This document shows positions 41,335 to 64,000 of a stretch of 64,000 nt of DNA, in pieces. Source of the stretch: a bacterium (GTDB lineage: Bacteria > Patescibacteriota > Microgenomatia > JAMCZE01); contig JAKBJL010000004.1 of the NCBI GenBank assembly GCA_021836035.1, positions 131,841 to 195,840 of the forward strand, in the 5' to 3' direction. Position 1 is the stretch's first letter. The number at the start of each line of letters is the position of its first letter. The position numbers and the translations under genes are program-made. A model generated the notes under the pieces. The model was not told the origin of the DNA and did no database searches. It saw nothing but the letters and a program-made list of their open reading frames with translations.

Positions 41335-43917
41335 ATGGGAAACATAAACTGGCACAATCTGGAGGCGGGGTATTTATTAAGTCATTTCTCTTCTTATTCA
41401 GAATTACTTAAAGAAAGTTTATTTTCTGTCTCTTCCCGTTATTTTTTCCTCTCCCCTTCTTTTCTACTTTTGATATCCATAGCGCTCTCCCTTCTTATCG
41501 TTATTCGCAGGCTTTTTATCCTAAAAAGATCGCTGAGTGAAGAACCGGTATTTCTGGAACTGACCCCGCCGGCCCTCACCGATAAAACCTCTTATACCAC
41601 CGCCCGGCTTTTCTCCGTCGTCCACGAACTGGGGAAGATTGGGTACCCGGGCGATAAGCTTTTAGGTAAAAAGACCGTTTTTTCTTTTGAAATCTCCTCC
41701 ACCCTTAAGCAGGGTATTCGCTATTTCATACGGACTACCCGGACCGAAGAAGATAACATCAAAAAAAGCCTTTTAGCCTACCTTCCCCAAATAAGCGTTA
41801 AAGAAGCGACTGATTACCTGCCGGGAAAGGCCGGCGGTTTATTTTGCCTAAAAGTACTTGAATTTAAACTCAACCGCCACTTTGCCTTTCCCCTTAAAAA
41901 ACAGAATGTTTTGGAAGAACACGATCCCCTCGCCTACATAACCGGCATGATGACCAAGCTCAAACCCGGGGAATTAGTCTCTTTCCAAATTGTCCTGTCT
42001 CCGGTTCAGCCAAAGGAAACAGAGACTATCTCCGACAAGATTCTTCACGGCGATGATGTATTTAAGTATCTGGAAAGAATACCTCTACCGTCGCTTTTTA
42101 AACCGCTAACCTATGGCTTATCGCTTTTGTCTAAACTGCTGCATCCTTTCGCTGCCCTACCAAAAAGAACCTATAACACCTTCGAACAACAGGCGGTAAA
42201 AAGCATTCAGGAGAAAATCGAACAACCGCTTTTTGAGACTTCGGTCAGATTATTGCTTATGGTAAAGAACAAAAATCAGATAAGGGAAAGAAAAAACGGT
42301 TTTGTTTCCTCCTTGGCCACTTTCTCTGTGCCTAAATATCAGGCTTTTAAGGCCAAATATAATCTTCTGCCCTGGATCCTGGACAAAATTAACCTTTTTA
42401 ACTTCCAAAAGAGACGGTTGTCTTGGCTTTTAAATTCCAGTCCCGTGTATCTTTCTTTAGCTGAGGTTTCCGACCTCTATCACTTTCCATTTAAGAGGGT
42501 CACCCAGACAGAAGACCTGGTAAAAGTGTATGCCAAAGACCTTCCCGCGCCGTTATCGTTGAAAAACACCAAGCTTGATTATGTTTTTGCTAAAAACAGC
42601 TTCGGAGGTACGGTTACCGATATCGGGCTAACAGACAAGGAGAGGGAAAAACACGTGTACATTATCGGCGCTACCGGCACCGGCAAGACCACGATGATTA
42701 TGTCCATGGCCAATAATGACTTGAAAAACGGTAAGGGACTGTGTGTTATTGACCCTCACGGCGACCTGGCTGAAAGTATTATCGCCTGTGTTCCGGATGA
42801 AAGAATTTCGGATTTTATCTACTTTAACCCGGACGATATCAAATATCCCATCGGGCTAAATCTCTTGGAACTGACTCCCGGACTGGATGAAGACGAGCTT
42901 TTAAGGGAAAAAGAGCTGATTACCGAAAGCGTGGTGTCCCTGTTTAGGAAAATCTTCTCCGAAGTCTGGTCTGCCCATGCCCATAGGATTGAATATATCT
43001 TAAGAAACACCATCCAGACAGCTTTGTGCCTGAAAGATCCGACCATCTTTACCGCCTACCGCCTTTTGACCGATCCGGAGTTTCAAAAATCGGCTATGCA
43101 TGATGTCACGGATGAAAATTTGAAAAACTTCTGGAAAAACGAGTTTGGCAAGGCCGGCGATTTCCAGAAAGTGAAAATGATCGGGCCAATTACTTCAAGA
43201 ATCGGACGTCTTCTATTTTCTCCATCTGCTAAAAGGATTTTGGAACAGCCCAGGTCAACGATTAACTTTGATGAGATCCTGGACAAGGGAAAAATCCTGG
43301 TTTGCAACTTGTCTAAAGGCCGCCTGGGAGAGGATACGTCAGAAGTTTTGGGAATTATGATTTTAACTAAAATCCAGCTGGCTTCTCTTAAGAGGGCACG
43401 GATCGATGAAGGGAAAAGAAGTCCTTATTACGTTTACGTTGACGAATTCCAAACCTTTGCCACCCCGTCTTTTATCCAGATGATATCTGAGTCGAGAAAA
43501 TACAAGGTTTACCTCGTCATGGCCGAGCAGTCCACTTCCCAGCAAAAAGACCGCAATATAACAAACGTCATAATCGCCAACGTCGGAACAGTCATAAGTT
43601 TTCGAAGCGCCAACCCGGAGGATGAAAAACTGATGCTTCCGCAGTTTGAACCGTATGTTGATAAGGGAGAAATTACCAATCTGCCATCCTTCAAGTTCTA
43701 CATGAAGATATCAGCCATTACTCCCCGGGAACCTTTCTCCGGGGAAACGATTTTAACTCCGGTAAATAAGGATAAAGACCGGTGTACGTCGCTTATCCAA
43801 TCCTCGCGCAATTTGTATGCCAAAGAATATCTCGCTCCGGTTGCAACCAAAGTTATTCCCAGAGCAAAAAAGCCCGGAAAAGAAGAAGTTTTTGAATCGA
43901 TAAGCGTCCTGACTTAA
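41335..43917 (+). CDS. type IV coupling protein-like P-loop ATPase (VirD4/TraD/TraG superfamily)
   Basis: 860 aa with an N-terminal TM segment, Walker A IIGATGTGKTTMI, VIDPHGD and Walker B YVYVDEFQTF. Confidence 0.6.
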   Translation: MGNINWHNLEAGYLLSHFSSYSELLKESLFSVSSRYFFLSPSFLLLISIALSLLIVIRRLFILKRSLSEEPVFLELTPPALTDKTSYTTARLFSVVHELGKIGYPGDKLLGKKTVFSFEISSTLKQGIRYFIRTTRTEEDNIKKSLLAYLPQISVKEATDYLPGKAGGLFCLKVLEFKLNRHFAFPLKKQNVLEEHDPLAYITGMMTKLKPGELVSFQIVLSPVQPKETETISDKILHGDDVFKYLERIPLPSLFKPLTYGLSLLSKLLHPFAALPKRTYNTFEQQAVKSIQEKIEQPLFETSVRLLLMVKNKNQIRERKNGFVSSLATFSVPKYQAFKAKYNLLPWILDKINLFNFQKRRLSWLLNSSPVYLSLAEVSDLYHFPFKRVTQTEDLVKVYAKDLPAPLSLKNTKLDYVFAKNSFGGTVTDIGLTDKEREKHVYIIGATGTGKTTMIMSMANNDLKNGKGLCVIDPHGDLAESIIACVPDERISDFIYFNPDDIKYPIGLNLLELTPGLDEDELLREKELITESVVSLFRKIFSEVWSAHAHRIEYILRNTIQTALCLKDPTIFTAYRLLTDPEFQKSAMHDVTDENLKNFWKNEFGKAGDFQKVKMIGPITSRIGRLLFSPSAKRILEQPRSTINFDEILDKGKILVCNLSKGRLGEDTSEVLGIMILTKIQLASLKRARIDEGKRSPYYVYVDEFQTFATPSFIQMISESRKYKVYLVMAEQSTSQQKDRNITNVIIANVGTVISFRSANPEDEKLMLPQFEPYVDKGEITNLPSFKFYMKISAITPREPFSGETILTPVNKDKDRCTSLIQSSRNLYAKEYLAPVATKVIPRAKKPGKEEVFESISVLT

Positions 43918-43983
43918 GTAATTTCAGTGTCAGACCTTTGACACCGGATCTAATTAAAATTGAGGCTAACCAGCTAAAAAGTC

Positions 43984-44838
43984 TTGTCTATATATTACTT
44001 ATACAAGTATAAGGAGAGAAACAATATAAAAGCTGTTAAGGAACAAAAAAATATGAAGACTCCCCCTAAACTAAATCCCAGACTTGAAGAGATCCTCCTT
44101 CTAATTTACCGATTCCGATTTCTAACTACTTCTCAAATTCAAATCCTTCTTAATCATAAATATCACAGCCGTGTCAATCTCTGGCTAAATCAATTAACCG
44201 CTAGAAATTATCTCAAGCGCTACTATAACTTAAAATTTGCCGGTGAGCCAGCTTTATACTCTTTGGGAACTGCCGGAAGAAAATATTTCAAAACCCACAA
44301 AGAAATTAACAGAATAAAATTGTCGCTTCTTGATAGGGTTTGGACGGAGTACCGTAATTCCTCCCAATTTAAGCGTAACTGCCTGTTGCTGGCTGATATT
44401 TATATCTCCCTTTTAAGTTTAGCTAATAAAGCAAAAGCCAAGCTGGGTTTTTATTCCAAAGTCGATCTTTTCGGCATGAAATTTATGGTTTTGCCCGAAC
44501 CATCGTGTTATTTTTCCCTGGAAGACCAAAACGGCGTAACCAAACGCTATTTTCTGGATATCTTTGACTACTTTGTTCCCAAAGACCTTTTTAAACGGAT
44601 TAAAAAATACCTCTACTACTTTGAAAAACGCTACTGGCAGGACCATACCGACAAAACCTTCCCGGAGATAATCCTGGTCTGTCCCAATAAAGCGGCAAGA
44701 ACTTATCTGGAGAAAACCATCAGGGGCAACCTTGAAGATAAAGATTATTCCCTAACATTTTACTTGGCCTTGACAGAAGATATTCAGCAAAAAGGATTAA
44801 ACAGACAGGTATTACAAAAAGTAGAAATTCAATATTAA
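43984..44838 (+). CDS. replication-relaxation (Replic_Relax) family protein, putative relaxase/mobilisation protein
   Basis: An N-terminal wHTH-like LNPRLEEILLLIYRFRFLTTSQIQILL is typical of the Replic_Relax family. It sits directly downstream of the coupling ATPase. Confidence 0.5.
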   Translation: MSIYYLYKYKERNNIKAVKEQKNMKTPPKLNPRLEEILLLIYRFRFLTTSQIQILLNHKYHSRVNLWLNQLTARNYLKRYYNLKFAGEPALYSLGTAGRKYFKTHKEINRIKLSLLDRVWTEYRNSSQFKRNCLLLADIYISLLSLANKAKAKLGFYSKVDLFGMKFMVLPEPSCYFSLEDQNGVTKRYFLDIFDYFVPKDLFKRIKKYLYYFEKRYWQDHTDKTFPEIILVCPNKAARTYLEKTIRGNLEDKDYSLTFYLALTEDIQQKGLNRQVLQKVEIQY

Positions 44839-44875: not shown

Positions 44876-45733
44876 ATGAATTGGATAATTGCCAGCTTAG
44901 TAATGTTCGTTTCCTCGGTAGTGATGTATTTGTTTATCCGTAAATCGGCTTTACTAAAACTTCCTTCTCAATATAACAACCTCGCAATGTTTGGGATACC
45001 ATTATTCGTCTTTATTACCATAGGGTTGTTTTCAAAACAAAATTTCATAATTCCTTTTAACTATCTTCTCGCTATCTTTATAATTTCTATATTATTTAGT
45101 TATCTTGGAAACGTATTTTCTTTAATTAGTATCGAACGGTCTCCCAATCCTGGTTACAGCTTAGTAATCTCAAAAAGCTATGTAGTATTTACGACCATAC
45201 TTTCCGTTTTGTTCTTCAATTCCGAGTTGTCCATCAAGAAAGGGATCGCAATACTTCTTATCGTCGTATTTTCTGCACTCATAATGTTGTCGCAAAAATC
45301 TATAAAAAAAGTCTCTAACAATAGGTGGCTGTTCCTTGCTTTTGGAGCGTTTTTTTGCTGGGGCTTCTTATCTTTAGCCTCTAAATATATGTTTAACTTA
45401 GGGGTTGGGCTTTACGTATTTTTGTCTTATACCTACCTTTTCGTAAGTATTTGTATATTAATTGAAATGCATATTAAGAAAATGTCCCTCAAGTCATTTG
45501 TAAAGAATCCTTGGCAATTTTTATTAATCGGTCTTGCCTCGATTGGGTTCAATCTTTTTCTTTTCTTGGCAATAAAGCTGGCTCCAAATGTTGGATATGT
45601 TAATGCAATTAACGCTGGCTCAATTTCCGCGGTAACGGTACTAGCGATTTTATTATTTAAAGATGAATTTTCACTACGAAAGCTTGTTGGTGTAATTGGG
45701 GTTACAGCCGGACTTTTGATGCTGTTAATTTAG
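44876..45733 (+). CDS. polytopic membrane protein, DMT/EamA-like
   Basis: 285 aa with about 10 TM helices arranged as two similar halves. Confidence 0.35.
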   Translation: MNWIIASLVMFVSSVVMYLFIRKSALLKLPSQYNNLAMFGIPLFVFITIGLFSKQNFIIPFNYLLAIFIISILFSYLGNVFSLISIERSPNPGYSLVISKSYVVFTTILSVLFFNSELSIKKGIAILLIVVFSALIMLSQKSIKKVSNNRWLFLAFGAFFCWGFLSLASKYMFNLGVGLYVFLSYTYLFVSICILIEMHIKKMSLKSFVKNPWQFLLIGLASIGFNLFLFLAIKLAPNVGYVNAINAGSISAVTVLAILLFKDEFSLRKLVGVIGVTAGLLMLLI

Positions 45734-45800
45734 ACCAAAAAACCGCAAGCGAGAGGGGTTAGTCTCCCGCCTGCGGTTGAAAACTCACTTGCTCATGATT
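45733..45800 (-). terminator. repeat element Y copy 1: hairpin + T-run on minus strand, carrying the 3' tail (IMSK*) of a lost DUF2958-like gene
   Basis: gaccaaaaaaccgcaagcg..cgcctgcggtt..ctcacttgctcatgat is near-identical to the element at 47498..47551. Read on minus it gives ATCATGAGCAAGTGA = I-M-S-K-stop, a hairpin and a TTTTTT run. Confidence 0.5.
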
Positions 45801-45925: not shown

Positions 45926-45931
45926 CAGCAT

Positions 45932-46714
45932 ATGAAAAGAACTTTACTTACATCCCGGGATTCAGCTATTCTTGAGGAAGCTTTGGCTAAATTCGGGAAT
46001 ATTGTGACAACCCGCGATCTTTACAGCATCCTTAAAGACGCCTCAAAAGCTCAAGCTTTAAATATCATTAGCAGGTTAGCCAAAAGAGGCTGGTTAGTTC
46101 GTATAAAGCACGGTACTTATAGTATTGCAGATTTAACTTCGCGGGGTTATTTAGATGCTTCACAGTTGGTAGTTGCCCAAACAATTTGTAGCAATTCCTA
46201 TGTGACTATGGAGGCGGCGCTCGGTTATCACGGTATGTTTGACCAGTTATTAAGTACCATAACCTCAGTTTCTCTTGCTCAAATACGAACAACTAATTCC
46301 GGCAGCAGCAACTACCATTATATCTCGACGCAAAATCACTTCTTTTACGGTTTTGACGAGGTAACTATCGAAGGAAAACAAGTAAAAATTGCCACAATTG
46401 AAAAAGCCCTCATCGATCTTATTCAGTTTAATCGATCAATATACTCGGTCGATTTAGTTATCGAAAAAATGCAAACTTATAAAGATAAAATAAATTTCAA
46501 TCGGCTGGCGAGCTATTTAGAAAAATCCACAACCGCAACTACGCGTATATTCGGGTATATTTTTGATCTGCTTGGGATAAAAAGTTCCAGTCTTGATAAT
46601 ATAGTCAAAGAAGATACAAGTACGACATATCTTTCCAAAGACAGCGGGGTGTATCAGGCGAAATGGAGGTTATATATAGATAAATATTTTGACAAATATT
46701 CACAAAGTGCATGA
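45932..46714 (+). CDS. AbiEi-family antitoxin-like protein (type IV TA / abortive infection)
   Basis: An N-terminal wHTH (SRDSAILEEALAKFGNIVTTRDLYSIL) plus a C-terminal domain. It overlaps by 4 nt with a downstream AbiEii-type gene. Confidence 0.55.
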   Translation: MKRTLLTSRDSAILEEALAKFGNIVTTRDLYSILKDASKAQALNIISRLAKRGWLVRIKHGTYSIADLTSRGYLDASQLVVAQTICSNSYVTMEAALGYHGMFDQLLSTITSVSLAQIRTTNSGSSNYHYISTQNHFFYGFDEVTIEGKQVKIATIEKALIDLIQFNRSIYSVDLVIEKMQTYKDKINFNRLASYLEKSTTATTRIFGYIFDLLGIKSSSLDNIVKEDTSTTYLSKDSGVYQAKWRLYIDKYFDKYSQSA

Positions 46715-47475
46715 ATACCACTGTTCTTAGCCGGCAACAGTTAACGATAATTAACAGGAAAACATTAAGATACCCGCTTCATATTGCGGAAAAGGATTAT
46801 TTTCTAGCTTTTGTCATGCAGATTATTTCCAGATCAACTTTAGGGCAAAGTTTGGTGTTTAAAGGTGGCACCGCTTTACACCACTGTTTTTTAAATCAAT
46901 ATCGCTTCTCCGAAGACCTGGATTTTTCCGCTAATAGGTCTCCGGTATCACTTGATCGGGTGCGGACAATGTTTGCCGGAGTTGATTGCTTAACTATTAA
47001 AAAAGACTATCTGTCAAATGCCACAATTAAAATTGAAAAACTGCAGTACACTGGACCATTAATTCAACCCAATTCCCTTAAAGTAGAAATTGATTTTCTT
47101 CAGGATGTACTTTTACCTTCGAAATCCATGAAATATCAAAATGTTTGGGGAATTGATTTTAAAGTCAATGCTATGGACCAAAAAGAAATTTGCGCCGAAA
47201 AAATACGCGCCATGAGCGACCGTGCCCGCTATCGTGATTTTTATGATTTATACCTCCTTTTCGAAAAATACCAACCTGATATACATGAAATAATAGAGTA
47301 TGTTAAACAAAAAGAAATCAGGCGTCCCATTACCAAAGAAAATATTATTAATAACTGGAAAGTTGTTAACTCTCAAAAAGTGCAAGAAATGAGCCGGATT
47401 TATTTCTCAAAAGATGTAGCTGATACACGGATAAAAGCAATGATTGATATGCTTCCGTTCACAACAATAGACTAA
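46711..47475 (+). CDS. AbiEii/AbiGii-family nucleotidyltransferase toxin (DUF1814)
   Basis: Signature LVFKGGTALHHCFLNQYRFSEDLDFS (KGGTAL...RxSxDLDF). Confidence 0.7.
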   Translation: MNTTVLSRQQLTIINRKTLRYPLHIAEKDYFLAFVMQIISRSTLGQSLVFKGGTALHHCFLNQYRFSEDLDFSANRSPVSLDRVRTMFAGVDCLTIKKDYLSNATIKIEKLQYTGPLIQPNSLKVEIDFLQDVLLPSKSMKYQNVWGIDFKVNAMDQKEICAEKIRAMSDRARYRDFYDLYLLFEKYQPDIHEIIEYVKQKEIRRPITKENIINNWKVVNSQKVQEMSRIYFSKDVADTRIKAMIDMLPFTTID

Positions 47476-47497
47476 AAATTTGAAAGATAAAACTTTA

Positions 47498-47545
47498 GAC
47501 CAAAAAACCGCAGGCAAGAGTTGTCAGTTCCCACCTGCGGTTATA
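47498..47545 (-). terminator. repeat element Y copy 2: rho-independent terminator of the DUF2958 gene
   Basis: A 9-bp stem aaccgcagg/cctgcggtt followed on minus by TTTTTT, immediately after the stop at 47549. Confidence 0.55.
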
Positions 47546-47548
47546 AGC

Positions 47549-47842
47549 TCACTTGCTCATGATCTCTGACAAGTGACAAGGCTTGAAATAGCGATCCCGT
47601 TCCACCGGCAATCCCAGCTTGCCCCGGTTGGAAGTAAGTTCGCTTAGGCTAAAGTAGCCCAGCTCCTTCTCAAACCCATCGACCAATCCGAAGAACTGGT
47701 CACGGCCATCAAACTCAATGGCGTACCAGGTCCAGGAAAAGTCCGGATAGAAGAACTTACAAATTATCATGGGATCTTTAACTTCCTCCTGGGAATAAAG
47801 CGGGGGCAGTTTTTCCAGAATATCTTTAGTCAAAAGCTGCAT
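47549..47842 (-). CDS. DUF2958-family protein (plasmid/ICE-associated)
   Basis: 97 aa from the ATG preceded by GGAGGTG. The ORF track extends it to a TTG at 47857. The pattern W.WY..EFDG...FGLV.G.E.ELGYFSL.EL resembles DUF2958. Confidence 0.45.
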   Translation of the reverse strand: MQLLTKDILEKLPPLYSQEEVKDPMIICKFFYPDFSWTWYAIEFDGRDQFFGLVDGFEKELGYFSLSELTSNRGKLGLPVERDRYFKPCHLSEIMSK

Positions 47843-47861
47843 CTTTATCACCTCCAATCTA

Positions 47862-47950: not shown

Positions 47951-47999
47951 TTTTAACGCCTGTCAGAAAAATGCCAACATCAGTAATAAGTCTTATTAA

Positions 48000-48088
48000 A
48001 ACCGCATTTTTCTACAGGCTTAAATACCCACCTTTTGACAGCCGGTTTGAACCCCATAAAATAAGAAGACAAGGACAGGACAAAGTTC
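48000..48088 (+). promoter_or_regulatory. repeat element X copy A: TTGACA-N16-TAAAAT promoter + CAAGGACAGGACAAAG leader, upstream of second AbiE pair
   Basis: ggcttaaatacccaccTTTTGACAgccggtttgaaccccaTAAAATaagaagaCAAGGACAGGACAAAG. Confidence 0.5.
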
Positions 48089-48237: not shown

Positions 48238-48828
48238 ATGATATCCATGGATAATGATTTTATATTATCTCTTTATCGCCGGCCGGAAACCGTTTTTAGT
48301 GTTGATGAGATCGCCCAGCTTTTTCCCCATCTATCAACGGAAAGCTTGCGTAACCGTCTCTACTATTTCAGTAAATCCGGCAAGCTGAAAAGACTTCATA
48401 CCGGAATTTATGCCAAAGAGGGCTATAATAACTTTGAACTAGTTAATAAACTGTACAAGCCTTCCTATATCAGTCTGGAAACCGTTCTTAGTCGTGGCGG
48501 AGTCATCTTTCAGTATTACGAGACCATCTTTGCCGTTTCTTATGTTACCCGGGAGGTCCGGTTAAACAACTTGGGGATACAGTATCGCCGGGTAAAAGGT
48601 CCTGTTTTAACAAACTTGACTGGAATTAATCGGGAAAACGGTTACTTTATCGCTTCATTGGAGCGGGCTTTCCTCGATGCCATTTATGTCTACAAAAACT
48701 ATCACTTTGATAATTTAAGAGGCCTTGATTGGGATAAGGTAGCTGTTTTTAAAACAATTTATAACAACGCCATTCTGGAAAAGAAAGTTGAGGAGTATTA
48801 TCAGACTTTTAAAGAAGAAAATGCTTAA
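48238..48828 (+). CDS. AbiEi-like antitoxin (second copy, divergent sequence)
   Basis: 196 aa with an N-terminal HTH-like region, a C-terminal domain, and an overlapping downstream AbiEii-type gene. Confidence 0.5.
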   Translation: MISMDNDFILSLYRRPETVFSVDEIAQLFPHLSTESLRNRLYYFSKSGKLKRLHTGIYAKEGYNNFELVNKLYKPSYISLETVLSRGGVIFQYYETIFAVSYVTREVRLNNLGIQYRRVKGPVLTNLTGINRENGYFIASLERAFLDAIYVYKNYHFDNLRGLDWDKVAVFKTIYNNAILEKKVEEYYQTFKEENA

Positions 48829-51513: not shown

Positions 51514-51539
51514 TTTAGAGATCTCATTTAACTTCCGCA

Positions 51540-55878: not shown

Positions 55879-56226
55879 ATGAAAAGAATCACCGCTTTTT
55901 GTGTATTAACTCTGCCCTTCTTGCTTCTTTCAGGAAGTCCCGCCTTCGCCGCCTCCGGAGATGTCACTAAAATCCAAACATTTATCCAAAGCGTTATTCA
56001 AGTCCTGGTTACCCTGGCCGGACTTTTATCGGCCGGATTTTTTGTTTGGGGAGGCGTCGGGTACATAACCAGTTCCGGCAATCCTGAAAGCCTGGATAGA
56101 TCCAAAAAGACCATCTTTTATTCCGCTATCGGTCTGGCAATCGTGCTTGGAGCTTTTGTGCTGTCCAATATCGTCACGCAGCTGGCCGGATCCGCTTTCG
56201 GAACAACAAGTACAACGACGCCTTAA
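55879..56226 (+). CDS. T4SS pilin-like protein (VirB2/TrbC-like)
   Basis: 115 aa with a signal peptide ending AFA and then two hydrophobic helices separated by GGVGYITSSGNPESLDRSKKT, the VirB2-type hairpin topology. Confidence 0.5.
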   Translation: MKRITAFCVLTLPFLLLSGSPAFAASGDVTKIQTFIQSVIQVLVTLAGLLSAGFFVWGGVGYITSSGNPESLDRSKKTIFYSAIGLAIVLGAFVLSNIVTQLAGSAFGTTSTTTP

Positions 56227-56246
56227 AAATTTGGCTGTCTAAATAT

Positions 56247-57548
56247 ATGATGAAAAAGTTAGTCTTTTTCGGCTCACTGTTTAGCCTCTTGCCTGCTGTC
56301 TTCGCCCCTTCTGTTTCGGCCGCAACTACCAGCTCCGAAATTACCCAATATACTAACGACACCTTAAGTATCATTACCGTTATCGCCTCGGCGGCCGCCG
56401 TCTTTTTCCTGATTAAAGGCGGTTATTTATATATCGCTTCAACCGGCAACCCCGAAGTTATTACCGAAGCCAAAAAAACCATAAAAAACGCCATAATCGG
56501 GCTGATACTGGTTTTAGGGGCAAGTTTACTAATTTCCCTTTTTAAAGGCGCCTTAAACTCCTCATCTGCCGCCGGATCTAATCCGGCTATAACTATTTCC
56601 CAAATAGAACCGGCCAAACCAACCGGGGGACTGACCCAGGTGCTTATTGATGCCGTCTCCGGATTTATGCAAAACATCGTGGAATCGGCCACCAGGCCGA
56701 TCGTCGACGGGATCATCGGTTATCTGACCACCACCCCGAGCTTGTTAGGCAATAAGGTCGTCTTTAATTTCTGGCTGGTAATCCTGGGAATCACCGATTC
56801 CCTCTTTGCCGTCATTGTGGCCCTCTTGGGGCTTCATTTCATGAGCGCCTCAACCTTTGGCTATGATGAGATGGAACTATCCAAACTGCTGCCCAAAATC
56901 GGCCTGGCTTTTTTGGGCGCCAATGTTTCCCTCTTTCTTGCCGATTATGTCGTTTTCAGCTGCAACGTTTTAGTTAAGGCGGTTATCGCCGCCACCGGAG
57001 GGCTAAGTAACGCCTGGGTGGTTAACGCCATTAACCTCCCTGCGCTTTCCGCGGGGACGACTCCCCTAATTACCCTGATTTTTTTGATTCTGTTTTTAAT
57101 CATTGCCATAGTTTTGCTTTTTATGTATATCGGCCGGCTGATAGTAATTTCCCTGGGGGCTGTTTTGTCCCCCTTAATCTTTCTGCTCTCCATTATCCCC
57201 AAACTGTCCGATTTTGCCGAGATTGCCGCCAAAAGCTACTTTGTGACGGTATTTATGGTCTTTGTCCATGTGGTGCTAATCCAGCTGGCCTCCTCGTTTC
57301 TAAGCTTGCCTTCCGGTTCCGCTAACTCCCTGGTCTCCATTGCCGTGGCCATCGGCTTATTTCTGACCCTTCTTAAAGCCCCCCAGATTATGATGCAGAT
57401 GGTTTTTTACAATTCGGCCAACCACGTGATGCGCAAAATCGGCCACGAGATAACCAATGTCATCTCCACCGATAACAGCGCGGCGGCTTCCCGGCAAACG
57501 TCTATAAACACGGCCTTCAAGGCCCCCGGAAAGGCGGTTGCGCCATGA
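56247..57548 (+). CDS. VirB6/TrbL-like polytopic membrane protein with N-terminal pilin-like module
   Basis: The N-terminal 100 aa are paralogous to the preceding pilin-like gene (GGYLYIASTGNPEVITEAKKT), followed by at least 6 TM helices. Confidence 0.5.
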   Translation: MMKKLVFFGSLFSLLPAVFAPSVSAATTSSEITQYTNDTLSIITVIASAAAVFFLIKGGYLYIASTGNPEVITEAKKTIKNAIIGLILVLGASLLISLFKGALNSSSAAGSNPAITISQIEPAKPTGGLTQVLIDAVSGFMQNIVESATRPIVDGIIGYLTTTPSLLGNKVVFNFWLVILGITDSLFAVIVALLGLHFMSASTFGYDEMELSKLLPKIGLAFLGANVSLFLADYVVFSCNVLVKAVIAATGGLSNAWVVNAINLPALSAGTTPLITLIFLILFLIIAIVLLFMYIGRLIVISLGAVLSPLIFLLSIIPKLSDFAEIAAKSYFVTVFMVFVHVVLIQLASSFLSLPSGSANSLVSIAVAIGLFLTLLKAPQIMMQMVFYNSANHVMRKIGHEITNVISTDNSAAASRQTSINTAFKAPGKAVAP

Positions 57549-58060
57549 GAACGACCGTTATCCCGGCCCAGATCACGACAGTTGAAGACAAGATCGCGGG
57601 CAACCTGAACTTAACCCAGATTTTAATTCTTCTCATACCCGTATTTTGGACAACCGTCGTTTACGCTTTCTTTGCCCCGGGGGTAAAACTTGTCTGGTAT
57701 AAATTCCCGCTGATTTTGGCGGTGCTTTTTATCTGTTTAGCCCTGGCGATCCGGCTTAAGGGAAAGGTCGCTTTAGAGTGGCTCATGGTTCTTTTAAAGT
57801 ATCGCTTAAGGCCGAAATACTATCTGTTTGACAAAAACAGCCCCTACCTTCGCCCCCGGGACCTGCCGGTATTTGAAAAGAAGCCTGTATTTAACAAACC
57901 AAAAGTCTCAAAAATTGAGGCTCGGCCGCCGGCTGGCGATTTCCCACCGGGAGAAATAATTAAACTGGACAATCTGCTTGTCCAACATAACTACACCTTA
58001 AGTTACAAAGCGGGAAGGAGGGGAGGTATCCGTGTGGCCCTGGAAAAAATTCCGAAATAA
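57545..58060 (+). CDS. VirB3/PrgI-like small membrane protein
   Basis: 171 aa with two adjacent TM helices, located immediately upstream of the VirB4 reading frames. Confidence 0.4.
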   Translation: MRTTVIPAQITTVEDKIAGNLNLTQILILLIPVFWTTVVYAFFAPGVKLVWYKFPLILAVLFICLALAIRLKGKVALEWLMVLLKYRLRPKYYLFDKNSPYLRPRDLPVFEKKPVFNKPKVSKIEARPPAGDFPPGEIIKLDNLLVQHNYTLSYKAGRRGGIRVALEKIPK

Positions 58061-58652
58061 AGCCAGCTCCAGACAACAAATCCAGGTTAAGGAGGTCAAG
58101 GACTCCATCCTGGTCCTGCCCAAGAACCAGTACCGGATAATTCTGGAAACCTCCTCCTTTAACTTTGAGCTCAAAAGCGAGGAGGAACAGGACGTTTTGG
58201 TTGATTCCTTCCAGAATTTCCTCAACTCCCTTCCCTGCCAACTGCAAATTCTTATCCGTATCCGGGATGTGGATATTGACCGCTACCTCGAGCAGATCTC
58301 CCGGACGAAGCATGATGAAAAAGAGCAAGTTTACAAAGAGCAGATAAGCAACTATTGCCTTTTTGTAAAAGGGATCGTCTCGGGCAATAAAATCCTCTCC
58401 CGGCGCTTTTATGTGATTATCCCCTACCGCCACCCCGCAGGGGCAAACGACTTTAACCTTGCCAGGGAGCAGATAAATCTAAACCGCGATATTGTGATAC
58501 GGGGTCTTGAGAAGCTTGGCCTGAAAGCCCGGCAACTGGCCAGCCTGGAAATTCTTGACCTTTTTTACAGTTTCTACAATCCCCACCAGACTAAAACCCA
58601 AAAGCTAAAAGGGCAAACCCTGCAAATGCTTTTGCAAAATAATGATGTTTAA
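58032..58652 (+). CDS. virB4: VirB4/TraE N-terminal domain (separate ORF; gene split by +1 frame change)
   Basis: The N-terminal-domain-like sequence (ILETSSFNFELKSEEEQDVLVDSFQNFLNSL) ends 11 nt inside the start of the ATPase ORF, which is in the +1 frame. Confidence 0.45.
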   Translation: MWPWKKFRNKASSRQQIQVKEVKDSILVLPKNQYRIILETSSFNFELKSEEEQDVLVDSFQNFLNSLPCQLQILIRIRDVDIDRYLEQISRTKHDEKEQVYKEQISNYCLFVKGIVSGNKILSRRFYVIIPYRHPAGANDFNLAREQINLNRDIVIRGLEKLGLKARQLASLEILDLFYSFYNPHQTKTQKLKGQTLQMLLQNNDV

Positions 58653-60462
58653 TCTCTTTGTTAAAGCCAAAAAGAAAATCAAAAATCCCCAGATTTCCCG
58701 GAAAGATTTTCTTCAAAAGTCTTGGGAATTTACTTTTGGCGAGCAGGACCAGGTTGACCTTATTTCCTACTCCGGATTAAAAGAAGAACCCTCATACCTG
58801 CAAGTGGGGGATAAATATGTTCGTACAGTATTTATCTCCGGCTACCCCTACGTCGCCTCTACCGGCTGGCTAAGCATGCTGATAAACTTTAACCATAATA
58901 TCGATATCTCTTATCATATTGAGCAGGTAAACCCGATCTACGCCCTGCCAAAACTTAACCGGAAGATTACCGAGCTGGAATCAACCAAAAGAACCATGCT
59001 CAAGCAGGGAAAAGTCATCGGATCGGAAGTTACCGACCCGTTGGAATCGGCCATGGAGCTAAAAGATAAGATTCAAAGAGGCCAGGAAAAACTCTTCCAG
59101 GTATCAATTTACATGACGGTCACCGCCGACAGCCTAAACGACTTAAACAAAATCACCACCCTTCTGGAAACCGTCATGTCGACCCGCCTCTTTTATACAA
59201 AAACGGCCGTCTTCCAGCAGTTGGAGGGCTTGCAGTCCATTCTTCCCCGGGCGGAGAACCTGCTGGCCCAGAAACGAAACCTGGACAGCTCTTCAGCCGC
59301 CCTGACATTTCCGTTTGTGTCCTCCGAACTGGTCCAGGAATCGGGAATTTTGTATGGAATCAATAAATCCAATAACTCCCTGGTGATCGTGGACCGTTTC
59401 AGCTTAAATAACGCCAACTCCATTATCTTTGCCCAGTCCGGATCGGGCAAAAGCTATACGGCCAAAGTGGAAATTCTTCGCCAGCTGATGCAGGGCACCA
59501 AAGTCATCGTCATCGATCCGGAGCGGGAATATAAACAGCTGGCTTCCTCCGTTAAGGGAACCTATATTAAGCTTTCCGTCAAATCCAGGGAGAAAATTAA
59601 CCCGTTTGATTTTTCCGTCAGTGCCTATTCCGGGGAAAATGACCTGGCTGAGCATATCCAGGACTTAACCGAAATTGTCTCCCTTATGGCGGGCGGTCTT
59701 AATGCCGAGGAAAAGGCGGTTGTCGACAAAGCCCTCCTGCAAACCTACAAAGACCACGGTTACCTCATGTATTACCGTTACACGCCCAAAGAAAATCGGG
59801 ATAAGCACGGCCGAAAACCCGGAAAGAAAAGTATTCCCCGACTGATAGACTTTTACCAAACCCTTAAATCCCTGAAGCAAAAAGACCTCTGCAACCGTCT
59901 GGAACGGTTTGTAAAAGGGTCGCTCTCTTCGGCTTTTGATTCCCAAACCAATATAGAGCTTAATAACCGGCTGGTCATCTTTGACCTTAAAGACCTTAAT
60001 GAATCTTTAAGACAAATTATGATGCTGGTGGTGGCCAACTTTGTCCATTCCCGGGTCAAAACCAAACCGCAAAAAAGAATCCTGGTCATCGACGAGGGAT
60101 GGATGCTTTTGCAACAGGAAGAAAGCGCCCGGTTTATCTCCAACCTGGTCAGGCGGGCCAGAAAATACTACCTGGGAGTCACTCTTATTTCCCAGCAGGC
60201 TAGCGATTTTCTAACCCAGGAATACGGCCGGGCTATCGCTTCCCAATCCGCCTTAAGAATTCTTATGAAGCAGGATACGACCACCATTAAGAAAGTTACC
60301 GAGGAGTTCGACCTGAGCGGGTATGAAGCGCACTTTTTATTAACCTGTGACCGGGGAGAAGCTTTAATTATTGCCGACCAGAACCACGTGGCCCTCAAAG
60401 TGGTGGCCTCGGAAAAAGAACACCCGCCCTTAACCACCGACCCGAGAGAAATTTATCTTTAA
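58642..60462 (+). CDS. virB4: VirB4/TraE-family T4SS ATPase (C-terminal NTPase part)
   Basis: Walker A AQSGSGKSYTAK, VIDPEREY and Walker B RILVIDEGWMLL. Confidence 0.8.
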   Translation: MMFNLFVKAKKKIKNPQISRKDFLQKSWEFTFGEQDQVDLISYSGLKEEPSYLQVGDKYVRTVFISGYPYVASTGWLSMLINFNHNIDISYHIEQVNPIYALPKLNRKITELESTKRTMLKQGKVIGSEVTDPLESAMELKDKIQRGQEKLFQVSIYMTVTADSLNDLNKITTLLETVMSTRLFYTKTAVFQQLEGLQSILPRAENLLAQKRNLDSSSAALTFPFVSSELVQESGILYGINKSNNSLVIVDRFSLNNANSIIFAQSGSGKSYTAKVEILRQLMQGTKVIVIDPEREYKQLASSVKGTYIKLSVKSREKINPFDFSVSAYSGENDLAEHIQDLTEIVSLMAGGLNAEEKAVVDKALLQTYKDHGYLMYYRYTPKENRDKHGRKPGKKSIPRLIDFYQTLKSLKQKDLCNRLERFVKGSLSSAFDSQTNIELNNRLVIFDLKDLNESLRQIMMLVVANFVHSRVKTKPQKRILVIDEGWMLLQQEESARFISNLVRRARKYYLGVTLISQQASDFLTQEYGRAIASQSALRILMKQDTTTIKKVTEEFDLSGYEAHFLLTCDRGEALIIADQNHVALKVVASEKEHPPLTTDPREIYL

Positions 60463-60469
60463 TAAATGA

Positions 60470-61087
60470 ATGAATCAGCTAAAAATCGGGTTGCTCTTAT
60501 GGTCATATAAGCGGGAATTATCCTACGTTTTACTGGCCTTCCTAATTGTTCTTCTCCTTCCGGTTATTGCCGTGATTATTCTTATGAATACCGGTATTAA
60601 TATCGTTTCTGATAAATTAGCTACGGTTGACAGCAAAACCCAGGCAATTGAAATCCACGATCCCAAAGACGGCTCGATAATTAAAAAGATTAAGCCTGTC
60701 ATCTCCTGGCCGGTCGGAGGGGTTTATACCCTGGAATTTGGCCAGTCAGACCTGCCTTATGAGGTTCTCCATTCCGGGATCGATATTGCCAATCCGCAGG
60801 GTAAAGTCGGTGATCCCGTCCACCCGTTCATGGACGGAACGGTTATTTACGCCGGGGAAATTTGGTGGGGTTACGGAAAACATATAATTATCGATAATGG
60901 AAATAATATTACTTCGCTATACGGGCATCTGGATAAAATTTACGCCTATCCGGGACAACAGGTGACAATCAACGATGTTATCGGCAACGAAGGAACCTCG
61001 GGTTGGTCTACCGGGCCGCATTTGCATTTCCAAGTTAGTGTTTTTGGAATTCCGCTAAATCCGAGAACGTTTTTAAGATCAGGTTAA
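60470..61087 (+). CDS. membrane-anchored M23-family peptidoglycan endopeptidase (T4SS-associated cell-wall hydrolase)
   Basis: An N-terminal TM helix plus M23 motifs HSGIDIA (HxxxD) and GPHLHFQV (HxH). Confidence 0.8.
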   Translation: MNQLKIGLLLWSYKRELSYVLLAFLIVLLLPVIAVIILMNTGINIVSDKLATVDSKTQAIEIHDPKDGSIIKKIKPVISWPVGGVYTLEFGQSDLPYEVLHSGIDIANPQGKVGDPVHPFMDGTVIYAGEIWWGYGKHIIIDNGNNITSLYGHLDKIYAYPGQQVTINDVIGNEGTSGWSTGPHLHFQVSVFGIPLNPRTFLRSG

Positions 61088-61477: not shown

Positions 61478-63919
61478 TTATGAGAGTAACATTTTCTCTA
61501 GCCTAGCTAGGGTGTGATTAATACTTCCAACCTCAGAGCCACTTTTCCATGAAGTAAATCCATCTATCTTGGCTACCATGGCAGCAATTTTCGGCCTGAG
61601 CTGTTTTTCTTGTATAGTCATTTCCGTGAATTCCTCTAGTGCTGATAAAAATTGCCCTAGTCTAAATGCGTTAGGCTCTGCTGTGTCTAATATTCCTGCT
61701 AACCTATTCATAACACCTACATAAGTTGTTCTATCGGTCCTAGCTAAGTCTAAAAGTGCTTTTGGATAGTTTTCATACAATTTATCTCTTGCTTGACCAT
61801 TAGCCCACTGGGCAAATTTACTGGCAGGATAGATTGAATCTATAGTGCTCAACTTTCTCTTCCCTTCGATTGAAAGTGGCCCGCCCGCTGGTGGAATGGG
61901 AATTGTTGGTCCAGAAACTTTTCCTTTCCCAGCCCCGGGTATGGCCGTCGAGGCTGAGGGGGTTTTGAGTGGTTCTTCCTCTTTTACCTCCTCTACTGTT
62001 TCACCTTCATCCAGAAGATCACTAGCCGCTGCGCTTACTGGTCGTCTTAATCGACCGTACGGATCAAGTTTGGCAACAATTTCGGCAGAGGTGTATTGGC
62101 TCTTAGGGACATAACGCTTGCCGTCGTAACCGCTCCAGGCGTTAAGAGTGTTTTGGTCAAGGCCCGCAATTCTTAAGTCTTCAACTTTTACGCCACGAAA
62201 GAATCCTTGCAGGGCAAAAATCTCCGCCAGGTAATAGCGGTCTTCCTCTGGGAAGTTTTCATTATTAATAAAGGCGACAATCCGGCGGTTAAGAAACTCT
62301 CGGAATGTTAATCCCTCCCGCTGGGCATCTTCCCAGCCAACTAACATGTCCAAGGCTTTGCCCGGATCGAGGACTGCTTCTCTTAGAGTGGCGGGTTTCC
62401 CGATTGACTCTTGTCCTCTGGCTGCCAAAATCTGGCCTTGCGCTGTGGCGACAGTTTGGCCGAGATATGATTTTTGAACCCATTCGGTGGCGTCACAAAG
62501 CGCACGCAGAGTATCGTTGGCATCCTTGACCGACAACCTCACTCCACCTCGAACATCCATCAGAGAAGCCAACATAATGTCGTATAGCTCGGCGGGCGGA
62601 AAATAATCAATTGGTAACGGTTCAAACATTCTGACGAGTGCTGGGTCAAGTTTTTCTCTGTCAGCGTGTTTCTCGCTTTTAACATTCTCGGTGGCGCCAA
62701 CGGCAAATCTGTCTCCCACAGTAATCTTTTTATCGCTGTCCTCCTGGATAGTAATTGGCTGACCAACTCGGGCATTAAGATCTGTCTTGAGTCTTAATAG
62801 AATCTTATTTGGTACGGCGTTTATTTCGTCAAAAATGAAGGGTACGTTTCTCTCGATAGACCTGACAAACGGAGCCGAACCAAACATCAGGGTAACTTGG
62901 CCTTCTTTAACGCCGCCCTTGGTCTTGCCATAAACTTCATAATTGGTCATCAGCTCATGGCCCGTTAATCGCTCTGCTTCTTCCCCGAACAAACCTCTCG
63001 AGGCATGAAGAAGAAGCTCGGTTTTACCGCCACCGGTTGGCCCCGTTAAAAGAACTTTCTTACCCCGTGACCAATATTCTCTAACTGCGTCGATATATTT
63101 TCCTCGGCTCGGGGTCTCGGCAAATCGATCAGTTTTTAGTCCGTGCTGGTATCCTTCCAATTCCCGAAGTCTGGCGAGGTCAAAAACCTCCGGATCCTTC
63201 TTAAGAAAATCTGCTCGTTCTTCAAGAGCTTTTGTTATTTGTCGATTTTCGTCGATAATTCTTTGTTCCCCTGGCGAATACTGCCTGCCTTGCAAAAAGG
63301 CTGCTCTCGCCATTTTTTCTTGCTGTAATCTTAGCTGACATACCGCCGTCTCACATTCGGTAGCTTCTTTGGCGCTTCGCAGTTTATTCACTCTCTCTTC
63401 TCTTAAACGGGCGTATTGCTGCGCCACTTGGGGATATTTTGTCAGTTCGCTAATATGCTCTTCCACTTCCCGCAGTTCTCTCAGGTCGCTTTCGACAGTG
63501 CGCTGGCTAACATCGGTTCGGGTAACTTCGGCTACAACCGCTCGCATGTCACCTTTTTTAATTTGATCGAGTCTTTCTTGCAACGACTTAACAGGTTGTT
63601 GGGCTGACTTGCTATCTGGAACCGGGGTACCGCCTTTTGAGTGCCGTGTTAAATCAATTCTCAGTTCCACTCTTTTAACCAAGAAGTCATATAGCTCGGC
63701 AGTTTTATCTTGAATTTCCTGGGGGGAGAGAGGGGCACCTTCGATTTTCTTAGCTGCCTGTCCGACAGTCTCTTTTGCTTTGGCAGTTAACTCGCCAAGA
63801 AATCCGCCTTTAGGTTCTAGCGGTTTTTGCCCAGAAATTGGTTGTCTTTGTGCCTCTAAATCCTTTGGCAGTGTTGGCGCAAAATTTCTCGATACTTCTT
63901 TAACAAGTAATTCAGCCAC
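61478..63919 (-). CDS. large AAA_5 (MoxR/McrB-like) ATPase with long N-terminal coiled-coil region
   Basis: 813 aa with Walker A VLLTGPTGGGKTEL and Walker B/sensor FIFDEINAVPNKILLRLKTDLNAR, and a charged helical N-terminal region of about 280 aa. The gene is GC-richer than the host genes. Confidence 0.55.
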   Translation of the reverse strand: MAELLVKEVSRNFAPTLPKDLEAQRQPISGQKPLEPKGGFLGELTAKAKETVGQAAKKIEGAPLSPQEIQDKTAELYDFLVKRVELRIDLTRHSKGGTPVPDSKSAQQPVKSLQERLDQIKKGDMRAVVAEVTRTDVSQRTVESDLRELREVEEHISELTKYPQVAQQYARLREERVNKLRSAKEATECETAVCQLRLQQEKMARAAFLQGRQYSPGEQRIIDENRQITKALEERADFLKKDPEVFDLARLRELEGYQHGLKTDRFAETPSRGKYIDAVREYWSRGKKVLLTGPTGGGKTELLLHASRGLFGEEAERLTGHELMTNYEVYGKTKGGVKEGQVTLMFGSAPFVRSIERNVPFIFDEINAVPNKILLRLKTDLNARVGQPITIQEDSDKKITVGDRFAVGATENVKSEKHADREKLDPALVRMFEPLPIDYFPPAELYDIMLASLMDVRGGVRLSVKDANDTLRALCDATEWVQKSYLGQTVATAQGQILAARGQESIGKPATLREAVLDPGKALDMLVGWEDAQREGLTFREFLNRRIVAFINNENFPEEDRYYLAEIFALQGFFRGVKVEDLRIAGLDQNTLNAWSGYDGKRYVPKSQYTSAEIVAKLDPYGRLRRPVSAAASDLLDEGETVEEVKEEEPLKTPSASTAIPGAGKGKVSGPTIPIPPAGGPLSIEGKRKLSTIDSIYPASKFAQWANGQARDKLYENYPKALLDLARTDRTTYVGVMNRLAGILDTAEPNAFRLGQFLSALEEFTEMTIQEKQLRPKIAAMVAKIDGFTSWKSGSEVGSINHTLARLEKMLLS

Positions 63920-64000
63920 GGTTTTCTTCTCTACTATTATTATTATAGCTCAATTCATCGATAGCTTGTCCGAGAATCCGAGCCATTTGCGAGGTAAAGT

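Follow-up and report, generated by a model that had tools for sequence, protein, structure and literature searches.

Type IV Secretion Operon and Relaxase-Type Module at 41.3–61.1 kb of a Patescibacterial Contig: A Probable Immobilised Derivative of an Integrative Element

Introduction

Patescibacteria form a vast radiation of episymbionts with reduced genomes, most of which have not been cultured. In the current literature, their type IV secretion system (T4SS) is depicted as a conjugation machine that has lost its DNA-processing partners. The stretch considered here, called the window, consists of 64,000 nucleotides (nt) of contig JAKBJL010000004.1 (assembly GCA_021836035.1, positions 131,841 to 195,840) from a member of the Microgenomatia. 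It matches a section of the ENA contig ERZ27233565:k141_1055405 (138.7 kb). Between 41.3 and 61.1 kb it carries a T4SS operon together with a VirD4-type coupling protein (T4CP), a homologue of the Replic_Relax relaxases, and a DUF2958 protein. The question raised by this locus is whether it is a mobile element, what is left of one, or a resident chromosomal machine. The reading favoured here, with a probability of about 0.55, is that it is an immobilised derivative of a Patescibacterial family of integrative conjugative or mobilisable elements (ICEs and IMEs) which has lost its recombinase/tRNA end and accreted cargo.

The T4SS clade of the Patescibacteria has been surveyed by Quinonero-Coronel et al. 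in 2025 (PMC12102498). In that survey, relaxases were reported in only 103 Patescibacterial genomes, Replic_Relax, recombinases, and DUF2958 were not mentioned, and a co-option away from conjugation was inferred. The T4SS of Ca. Southlakia epibionticum was studied experimentally by Wang et al. in 2023, as cited in PMC12857230; contact-dependent host interaction via the T4SS was demonstrated experimentally in a Saccharibacterium. The Patescibacterial T4SS is among the few systems for which a vital part in growth on a host has been demonstrated.

The Coupling Protein, Relaxase Homologue, and DUF2958

The first gene of the locus (41335–43917, + strand) encodes a T4CP of 860 amino acids (aa), assigned by Pfam, by NCBIfam, and by more than 1700 homologues of 46–89% identity. 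The Pfam domains TrwB_AAD_bind (31.1 bits), TraG-D_C (23.8 bits), and T4SS-DNA_transf (20.1 bits) all reach their curated cut-offs, the NCBIfam matches to TraD and CD1115 are partial, and a Walker A motif, GATGTGKT, lies at aa 445–452. The N-terminal extension is long and corresponds to DUF8128 in precomputed Pfam annotation. The organism is a Patescibacterium of the Microgenomates group, and the closest named homologues of this T4CP and of GatB, encoded elsewhere in the window, belong to Levy-, Davies-, and Gottesmanbacteria.

Related loci and contigs are cited below by L numbers. The contigs of two independent Logan assemblies, SRR13170412 (L005) and SRR13170411 (L006), both end inside the T4CP gene, about 325–350 codons from its start, as might happen if the community or the genome held another, related copy of this gene at which the assembly breaks.

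The second gene (44053–44838, +) encodes 261 aa, or 284 aa if read from the TTG at 43984, and is a MOBC-type relaxase homologue according to Pfam and fold. Its match to Replic_Relax (PF13814) scores 35.3 bits against a cut-off of 25.3 and covers model positions 2–111 of 191; no NCBIfam match was found. An earlier annotation from the letters alone (the sequence-only reading) had recognised a VirD4/TraD-like P-loop ATPase and a Replic_Relax relaxase at this place, and both identifications stand, the two proteins being above the Pfam cut-offs and the ATPase having its Walker A motif. In the structural model, an N-terminal MarR-like winged helix is followed by a C-terminal PD-(D/E)XK restriction-endonuclease fold; a sequence-profile search of the PDB returned only MarR-type regulators, aligned to the N-terminal domain. 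As modelled, the homologue has the architecture of MOBC relaxases, in which a winged helix is combined with a restriction-endonuclease-like active site (PMC3424549, PMC12857230).

The family of this homologue comprises 703 clusters of 50% identity at E ≤ 1e-3, and PF13814 is matched by 65 of 68 members. Acidic residues conserved in the family are E99, D151 (in a 'PD' motif kept by 58 of 68 relatives), D/E169, and D/E172, and no obvious (D/E)xK lysine is seen. In the window protein E99, D169, and D172 are present and position 151 is Ser, as in L010, with Phe in L009; the protein may be catalytically altered. A tblastn search of 72,556 plasmids gave no match to Replic_Relax. The conserved third gene of the module, DUF2958, lies on the opposite strand (47549–47857, −; Pfam). 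The set that marks an ICE, namely, a relaxase, a T4CP, and a mating-pair-formation (MPF) module with VirB4, is present in the window, with the caveat of Ser151 in the relaxase homologue.

Between the T4CP and relaxase genes (43927–44013, +) lie a hairpin (43927–43944) and the palindrome CTTATACAAGTATAAG (43998–44013). The hairpin is a candidate because of covariation across loci, compensatory changes having maintained it in 5 relatives, and not because of its fold z-score (−0.84), which alone is not significant. These inverted repeats might represent a terminator, an operator, or an oriT.

The Module in Related Loci

Related loci were retrieved by alignment of T4CP homologues, 80 from GTDB species representatives and 80 from JGI metagenomes. 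The gene next after the T4CP encodes Replic_Relax in 69/80 GTDB and 62/80 metagenome loci (131/160). DUF2958 occurs in 38/80 GTDB loci, where it invariably follows the relaxase gene and is read from the other strand. Upstream of the T4CP and divergent from it, a gene of about 560 aa is found in 56/80 GTDB loci, or in 43 of the 58 that have at least 2.5 kb of upstream sequence. Its product is a large serine recombinase, with Resolvase matched in 44/44 scanned proteins, Recombinase in 33/44, and Zn_ribbon_recom in 28/44, and with an invariant catalytic Ser and Arg and invariant zinc-ribbon Cys. There are 55 recombinase genes in the GTDB set, 9 of which are cut by contig ends; at 43 of the 46 assessable ones, a convergent tRNA gene overlaps the recombinase 3′ end or lies within 100 nt of it, and at least 18 anticodons are represented. 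The metagenome loci replicate this pattern, 26 of the 32 recombinase ends that could be assessed there having a convergent tRNA (69/78 pooled). In these relatives, the tRNA junction and the recombinase stand within about 0.2–4 kb of the T4CP.

The overlap of the two genes has features of its own. The recombinase stop codon falls within a complete tRNA gene that runs the other way, the two genes sharing 19–87 nt (L008–L087, L094–L173; e.g., L010:7308-9067, L049:2623-4409, and L081:172-1914), and the tRNA differs by element, being Glu, Leu, Lys, Gln, Gly, Arg, His, Val, Pro, or Phe. Such tRNA-abutting large serine recombinases with overlapping gene ends may deserve a study in their own right. 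The recombinase regions L045:7844-9793 and L127:7983-9935 are 85% identical at the nucleotide level, and the adjoining T4CP genes do not align at that level, which suggests that integration modules have been exchanged between elements.

One empty site was found. The left flank of L010 has a collinear counterpart in L092, with ThrRS, MtaB, Tig, DUF5660, and a methyltransferase at 69–82% aa identity. In L092, tRNA-Arg and tRNA-Lys(ctt) are followed by housekeeping genes; in L010, the recombinase-T4CP element comes directly after tRNA-Lys(ctt). The similarity between the two stops at the 3′ end of tRNA-Lys.

The extent of the arrays varies. Complete compact arrays of about 13 kb, running from the recombinase through T4CP, relaxase, DUF2958, VirB2, VirB6, PrgI, TrsD, and VirB4 to M23, are found in L049, L077, L129, and L152. 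Window-like arrays without a recombinase are found in L098 and L166, and in L024 and L086 what comes right after DUF2958 is a truncated VirB4-M23 remnant. The interval from DUF2958 to VirB2 is a variable cargo zone among relatives, and the genes around the module include type I restriction-modification, a reverse transcriptase with Avd, RadC, a Cas4-like nuclease, AbiE, P-type ATPases, and DsbA. In L010, the closest relative, RadC and the Cas4-like PD-(D/E)XK nuclease flank DUF2958, and a bAvd gene with a reverse transcriptase (L010:15509-17334), likely a diversity-generating retroelement, is driven by the conserved promoter element found past DUF2958. No tRNA-derived direct repeats (attR) of at least 13 nt were found downstream of the T4CP in 40 loci, and an all-against-all megablast of more than 100 loci yielded a single informative boundary pair, L064 and L066.

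Taken as a family claim, the proposal is that the T4CP genes scattered in Patescibacteria, rather than being orphan or co-opted, are central to an extensive and so far undescribed group of integrative elements (large serine recombinase, VirD4-type T4CP, divergent MOBC/Replic_Relax relaxase, and DUF2958), which would be mobilisable alone and conjugative when contiguous with a T4SS, the window being a domesticated or decaying member that has retained its T4SS. The odds on this broader claim are regarded as even.

Horizontal Transfer of the Module

L010, a GTDB species representative, matches the window only at the T4CP and relaxase genes (3.5 kb, 86.5% nt identity), at DUF2958, and at the promoter element that follows DUF2958, and neither flank is related. 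The aa identities are 89% for T4CP, 86% for the relaxase homologue, and 79% for DUF2958, with a synonymous divergence (dS) of 0.47–0.76 and a nonsynonymous to synonymous ratio (dN/dS) of 0.09–0.19. This ratio is 0.09 for T4CP and 0.17 for the relaxase homologue, which is therefore still constrained. Housekeeping genes behave differently: the window GatB has no database match above 65%, and the L010 MtaB none above 70%, its two best matches that were traced being from other organisms. Because the module is 79–89% identical to that of L010 while housekeeping matches stay at or below 65–70%, its presence in the window lineage indicates horizontal transfer, as far as database comparisons allow. 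Between L010 and L092, housekeeping genes show a dS of 2.1–3.8.

Base composition at third codon positions (GC3) of the three module genes is 0.49, 0.41, and 0.59 in the window and 0.49, 0.41, and 0.56 in L010, the backgrounds being 0.39 and 0.51, respectively; the window genes thus fit the copies and the background of L010, not the background of the window. In a further pair, L064 and L066, which are different species representatives, a unit of 7.2 kb from the tRNA to DUF2958 is 98.7% identical and the right flank 93.4%, and the left flanks are unrelated. Two T4CP copies are present in each of three genomes.

The Left Junction and the Missing Recombinase

The left junction of the window copy (40810–41334) is the intergenic region between a PBP1 penicillin-binding protein gene (38377–40809, −) and the T4CP gene. 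By blastn, similarity to L010 and L008 begins at about 41266, 66 nt upstream of the T4CP ATG. In relatives, the place corresponding to 40810–41334 is occupied by the serine recombinase gene and the tRNA gene. No recombinase was found in the 64-kb window or in the next 10 kb, the best E value of a tblastn search with six relatives' recombinases being 0.27. The sequence-only reading had seen no integrase or att site within the window, which agrees with this search, itself carried past the right end, and there is also no tRNA junction. The tRNA genes of the window are only those at 13994, 27838, and 28767; the nearest is 12.5 kb from the locus, without an adjoining recombinase. At 40.5–56 kb, the repeated promoter element included, a permissive Rfam scan revealed no tRNA fragment or known RNA family.

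A recombinase was probably once present in the window copy and would since have been lost, leaving the copy immobile. The element can probably no longer excise, because the recombinase/tRNA end is gone, homology ends 66 nt before the T4CP, and PBP1 abuts.

The Type IV Secretion Operon

Six genes on the + strand, assigned by Pfam and NCBIfam, form the T4SS operon (55879–61087). They encode a VirB2-like pilin (55879–56226; T4SS_pilin, TrbC), a VirB6-like protein with an N-terminal T4SS_pilin domain (56247–57548; TrbL_4 match below cut-off), a PrgI/VirB3-like protein (57545–58060; 23.5 bits, cut-off 27), a TrsD-like protein corresponding to the VirB4 N-terminus (58032–58652; matches to TrsD and to the CD1110 N-terminus), the VirB4 ATPase (58642–60462; P-loop_TraG, AAA_10), and an M23 peptidoglycan hydrolase (60470–61087; Pfam). 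In the sequence-only reading, VirB2, VirB6, VirB3, VirB4, and M23 had been named; VirB2, VirB6, M23, and VirB4, the last as two genes, are recovered, and the VirB3/PrgI match is weak and below its cut-off. VirB4 scores 355.6 bits with NCBIfam conju_CD1110 (cut-off 325). The first gene before the pilin gene (55043–55609, +) encodes a 188-aa protein that looks secreted, having by eye a hydrophobic, signal-like N-terminus; it has no family match and is not conserved in relatives.

The gene order of this operon recurs in 20/80 GTDB and 15/80 metagenome loci. The two-gene VirB4 is found in all 11 GTDB loci with a VirB4N-type open reading frame (ORF), and a separate TrsD-like gene for the VirB4 N-terminus is described in the literature (PMC12102498). 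A frameshift in VirB4 was considered and is ruled out by these two facts.

A FATA-type VirB4, a TrsD-like gene, PrgI, VirB6, and VirB2-like pilins adjoin one another, by family matches with T4SS_pilin found twice, and on these matches the window T4SS is assigned to the already described Patescibacteria T4SS clade, related to MPF-FATA. The pilin and the N-terminus of the VirB6-like protein (56247–56550) score 38.4 and 39.7 bits with the family of the Mycoplasma ICE pilin-like conjugal transfer protein Mbov_0395 (cut-off 40), scores that appear to link Patescibacterial pilins with proteins of Mollicutes ICEs. By analogy, the present role of the T4SS is most likely a contact-dependent interaction with the host cell; export of DNA from a fixed oriT by the window locus is a possibility.

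The Cargo Zone and Its Repeats

The module and the T4SS operon are separated, and the module itself is interrupted, by variable genes. Between the relaxase gene and DUF2958 lies an EamA-family transporter gene (44876–45733, +; Pfam), which is missing at the corresponding place in L010, L008, and L009. It is followed by a first AbiEi/AbiEii pair (45932–47475, +; genes at 45932–46714 and 46711–47475; Pfam and PADLOC), and beyond DUF2958 there is a second (48238–49525, +; genes at 48238–48828 and 48788–49525; Pfam, PADLOC E values 8e-56 and 1e-63). Both pairs are intact, each with adjacent AbiEi antitoxin and AbiEii nucleotidyltransferase genes, and PADLOC E values range from 2e-34 to 1e-63. A further cargo region (49719–54297) begins with a 162-aa protein without assigned function (−) and continues with genes assigned by Pfam, namely, a PsbP-like secreted protein (50350–51513), a fusion of S51 peptidase and DinB (51732–52787), a glyoxalase (52784–53161), a nucleotidyltransferase (53158–53643), and an HD hydrolase (53644–54297, −). 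No PADLOC match was obtained for the 162-, 188-, 161-, and 217-aa cargo proteins, nor for an AAA_5 gene to the right of the operon and its 611-aa partner, which are described below.

The cassettes are delimited by repeats. A direct repeat of about 70 nt, made of a remnant of the DUF2958 3′ end and a strong hairpin terminator, is present at 45729–45799 (copy A; blastn to L010 and terminator scan) and at 47494–47563 (copy B), and the two copies flank the first AbiE cassette. The second repeat is a sigma-70-like promoter element, first seen at 47995–48084 (+), which consists of TTGACA, 16–17 nt, TAAAAT or TATAAY, and then GCAGGACAGGAC. Other full copies lie at 51544–51630 and 54493–54579, and a truncated one at 49549–49603, so placed that they divide the cargo into cassettes; the element just beyond DUF2958 is also present in L008, L009, L010, and L043. 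The fourth copy faces the T4SS operon and is part of a segment (54389–54579, +) that starts with a remnant, 68 nt (54389–54456) identical to 50957–51024 inside the PsbP-like gene.

Because a duplicated terminator or a copy of the promoter marks the limits of every cassette, the arrangement suggests that cargo was gained by repeated recombination at these elements. The sequence-only reading had described an AT-rich cargo of toxin-antitoxin and detoxification-type genes full of remnants, and the two AbiE pairs, the glyoxalase, and other genes, the genuine remnants, and the position of 44–55 kb as the most AT-rich part of the window are all in accord with it. An integron-like cassette array was also considered and rejected: there is no IntI integrase, and the repeat is a sigma-70-type promoter with conserved −35 and −10 hexamers, not an attC-like imperfect palindrome.

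Base Composition

It had been proposed that coding DNA is GC-richer from about 41.3 kb onward, and this is not the case. The GC content of 41–44 kb (0.42–0.43) equals that of 30–41 kb (0.42–0.44), without a step at 41.3 kb; 44–55 kb is the GC minimum of the window (0.35–0.40), and only 55–64 kb exceeds the rest (0.44–0.49). Compositional distinctness survives in part, at the level of GC3. Against a window background of about 0.38 (standard deviation about 0.06), T4CP (0.50) and DUF2958 (0.63, the highest) are raised, as are the T4SS genes (VirB2 0.49, VirB6 0.60, PrgI 0.55, the two VirB4 genes 0.60 and 0.58, and M23 0.47), whereas Replic_Relax (0.41) and the cargo genes are not. In 18 related loci, T4SS genes have a mean GC3 that is 0.06–0.08 above their neighbours, the window offset of +0.2 being the largest. 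GC-normalised tetranucleotide profiles of 41–64 kb are ordinary (r 0.77–0.87, inside the background range of 0.73–0.93), and in raw composition the sole outlier is 56–60 kb.

The Favoured Reading and Its Alternatives

In the canonical layout proposed for the family, a tRNA gene is followed by a large serine recombinase gene (−, its 3′ end overlapping the tRNA), a VirD4-type T4CP, a MOBC-type relaxase, DUF2958 (−), variable cargo, and then VirB2, VirB6, PrgI, TrsD, VirB4, and M23. The ancestor of the window locus would have been an integrative conjugative element of this family, which would be widespread in Patescibacteria. Its T4CP, relaxase homologue, and DUF2958 would have been acquired horizontally and then kept by purifying selection despite the Ser in place of the 'PD' aspartate, and loss of the recombinase and tRNA end would probably have made excision impossible. 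The cargo of about 11 kb, with its two AbiE systems, transporter, and small hydrolases, would have accreted on both sides of DUF2958, toward the relaxase gene on the left and toward the T4SS operon on the right. The T4SS would have been retained, likely for contact with the host cell. The earlier proposal of an integrated conjugative or mobilisable element, or of a T4SS with captured cargo, is supported by the recombinase-tRNA flanks of relatives, the unrelated contexts, the transfer signal, and the variable cargo between DUF2958 and VirB2; its composition argument falls, and the window has no integration module.

Several points weigh against the favoured reading. The published survey concludes that Patescibacterial T4SSs are chromosomal and co-opted (PMC12102498). 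For the window copy, no recombinase, att site, tRNA junction, flanking repeat, or excision product was seen, and the four to six assemblies of the window species all have the same arrangement, with no presence/absence polymorphism. No circular contigs, as judged by terminal overlaps, occur among the 80 metagenome loci. The right-hand end of the family elements was not found; it is therefore not established that the T4SS genes are inside the mobile unit. A T4SS lies downstream of the T4CP in only 8 of the 49 loci with at least 9 kb of downstream sequence, so that most modules look mobilisable rather than conjugative. Module genes mostly follow the GC3 of their host, which implies long residence in most genomes. 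The transfer argument, made through database matches, presumes that the housekeeping genes of both organisms are in the database.

The scarcity of T4SS genes near the module (8/49, within 10 kb) would be expected if the locus were two units side by side: a resident, vertically inherited T4SS operon (55.0–61.1 kb) and the remnant of a separate integrative mobilisable element (41.3–47.9 kb), with an ordinary variable region between. Only 148 of 5,713 T4CP genes are near virB4 in the literature (PMC12102498), T4SS identity does not track that of the T4CP (T4CP 46% and VirB4 76% in L077; T4CP 63% and VirB6 56% in L012), and the pairwise boundaries enclose only the stretch from tRNA/recombinase to DUF2958, about 7.2 kb. 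This account, the main rival, is nevertheless judged unlikely, since order and orientation are constant wherever both units are present, in at least 19 non-Saccharibacterial loci of different lineages, with some units only 1–1.5 kb apart, and the VirB4-M23 remnants after DUF2958 in L024 and L086 suggest that T4SS-less forms arose by deletion from a joint ancestor.

The opposite possibility, an ICE that still functions, with an integrase (serine or other) beyond the 74 kb examined or an extent far larger than the flagged region, draws on the conjugation genes, all intact and under purifying selection, and on the size of the contig, 139 kb (ENA) or 405 kb (NCBI), of which 64 kb plus 10 kb were inspected. 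It is distinctly unlikely, given that the tRNA junction and recombinase of relatives are so close to the T4CP (69/78), whereas here homology ends at 66 nt and the pair of PBP1 and alpha-2-macroglobulin genes comes next, that the nearest tRNA is 12.5 kb away with no recombinase beside it, and that the relaxase homologue lacks the 'PD' aspartate which 58 of 68 relatives keep. Very unlikely, finally, is a core chromosomal T4SS without mobile history, in which T4CP, Replic_Relax, and DUF2958 would be co-opted host genes serving uptake or export of protein or DNA in episymbiosis, and the recombinases of relatives would be incidental. Such a system would suit the published view of the T4SS as chromosomal, ubiquitous, without detectable relaxases, and indispensable to a Saccharibacterium growing as an epibiont (PMC12102498, PMC12857230), the high conservation of the T4CP (46–89% across classes), and the host-like GC3 and ordinary k-mer signature. 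It is hard to reconcile with recombinase-tRNA junctions at many different tRNAs (69/78), an empty site in a collinear relative, several copies per genome, a module divergence far younger than that of the hosts, defence and toxin-antitoxin cargo around the module, and the modelled relaxase-type fold.

Neighbouring Genes and Other Observations

The first 41 kb of the window consist of ordinary genes, among them MacB/FtsX, RecJ, an ECF sigma factor, glycosyltransferases, GatA/GatB, AsnB, PolX, LysM, and the pair of alpha-2-macroglobulin and PBP1. The alpha-2-macroglobulin is a bacterial protein of 2183 aa (31769–38320, −) with a Hint/PT-HINT/intein-like segment (aa ~1340–1472) between the bait region and the A2M domain, and its partner (38377–40809) is of PBP1C type. 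A DUF3800 gene (30122–30685, +) is immediately followed by a DUF3800-II RNA motif (30722–30794, −; Rfam RF02961, 67.7 bits). Directly after tRNA-His(gtg), an AT-rich block of five + strand genes with a GC3 of 0.25–0.31 (13994–17875) encodes a serine hydrolase, an SDR protein, a cupin, and two proteins without assigned function. Its tetranucleotide correlation of 0.727 is the window minimum, it has no recombinase, and it is a second candidate island.

To the right of the T4SS operon, an 813-aa AAA_5 (dynein/MoxR-like) ATPase gene (61478–63919, −) overlaps by 8 nt the gene of a 611-aa protein without family match (L001:8173-10008). The GC content at first codon positions (GC1) is unusually high here, 0.58. 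Because the pair is beside the T4SS in no relative examined and has no PADLOC match, it is probably not part of the element. In the 10 kb past the right end (contig L001), the 611-aa gene is accompanied by HAD, kinase, GH10, S58, hydrolase, and Obg genes, and on the related contig L002 peptide deformylase is found just past Obg. The same two contigs, from two samples of one species, show a strain-level indel about 7 kb right of the window end (L001:6158-7021), where ERZ27233565 carries an AAA_17 kinase gene and an 87-aa ORF that ERZ27233560 lacks.

Implications

Most T4CP genes examined keep company with a protein of relaxase fold and with a serine recombinase that abuts a tRNA gene, and one such module at least has passed from one lineage to another, distant one. 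Transfer of DNA by conjugation or mobilisation would thereby become a testable route of gene flow in the phylum, including the spread of defence systems. If the integrative-element family is real, it would supply the very different relaxases that the 2025 survey left to be found (PMC12102498), and T4SS-mediated DNA transfer would be common in Patescibacteria. The recombinases, with their differing tRNA junctions, would amount to a natural panel of site-specific integrases which are potentially useful for the genetics of organisms that are hard to manipulate. For the window itself the meaning is narrower: an intact T4SS beside a probably immobilised DNA-processing module and a cargo zone that appears to accrete cassettes.

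Comparison with Known Systems

The T4SS itself is already known; in the literature searched, no description was found of the family-level association of T4CP, MOBC-fold protein, and tRNA-abutting serine recombinase. With the Patescibacteria-clade T4SS, the window operon shares an MPF-FATA-related VirB4 with a TrsD-like gene immediately upstream, PrgI/VirB3-like, VirB6-like, and VirB2-like pilin genes, M23 downstream of virB4, the lack of outer-membrane components, and a chromosomal location. It differs in that it stands 8–12 kb from a module of T4CP, MOBC-like protein, and DUF2958 that is bounded by recombinase and tRNA in relatives, and in that it is not near dnaA/dnaN, a common context in Microgenomatia (PMC12102498).

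Replic_Relax (PF13814) corresponds to the MobC relaxase superfamily, and the succession of VirD4, MobC, and a serine integrase is a known compact layout of streptococcal IMEs (PMC5357655). IME_Class_8 of Coluzzi et al. 2017 (PMC5357655) resembles the Patescibacterial modules in its compactness and in combining a coupling protein of VirD4 type with a Rel_PF13814/MobC (Replic_Relax) relaxase and a serine integrase. It comes from another phylum, and tblastn detects no similarity of the Patescibacterial relaxase to plasmid-borne homologues; moreover, the Patescibacterial modules add DUF2958, a recombinase whose 3′ end overlaps its tRNA target, and sometimes a contiguous full T4SS, and the window copy is without integrase. 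The MOBC relaxases TraX (pAD1) and MobC (CloDF13) have in common with the window protein a winged helix and a PD-(D/E)XK domain, as modelled here, a gene beside that of a VirD4-type T4CP, and an association with MPF-FATA. The window protein is very divergent from them, its Pfam match being confined to the N-terminal half of the model, with Ser151 and no obvious (D/E)xK lysine. MPF-FATA ICEs of Firmicutes and Mollicutes, such as C. difficile CTn2 with its CD1110-family VirB4 and the Mycoplasma ICE with Mbov_0395/0397, are alike in that the window VirB4 passes the CD1110 cut-off and that the pilin and the VirB6 N-terminus reach 38–40 bits with the Mycoplasma ICE pilin-like family. Unlike them, the window locus has a VirB4 split in two genes and VirB2-like pilins, and the relaxase and integrase types differ.

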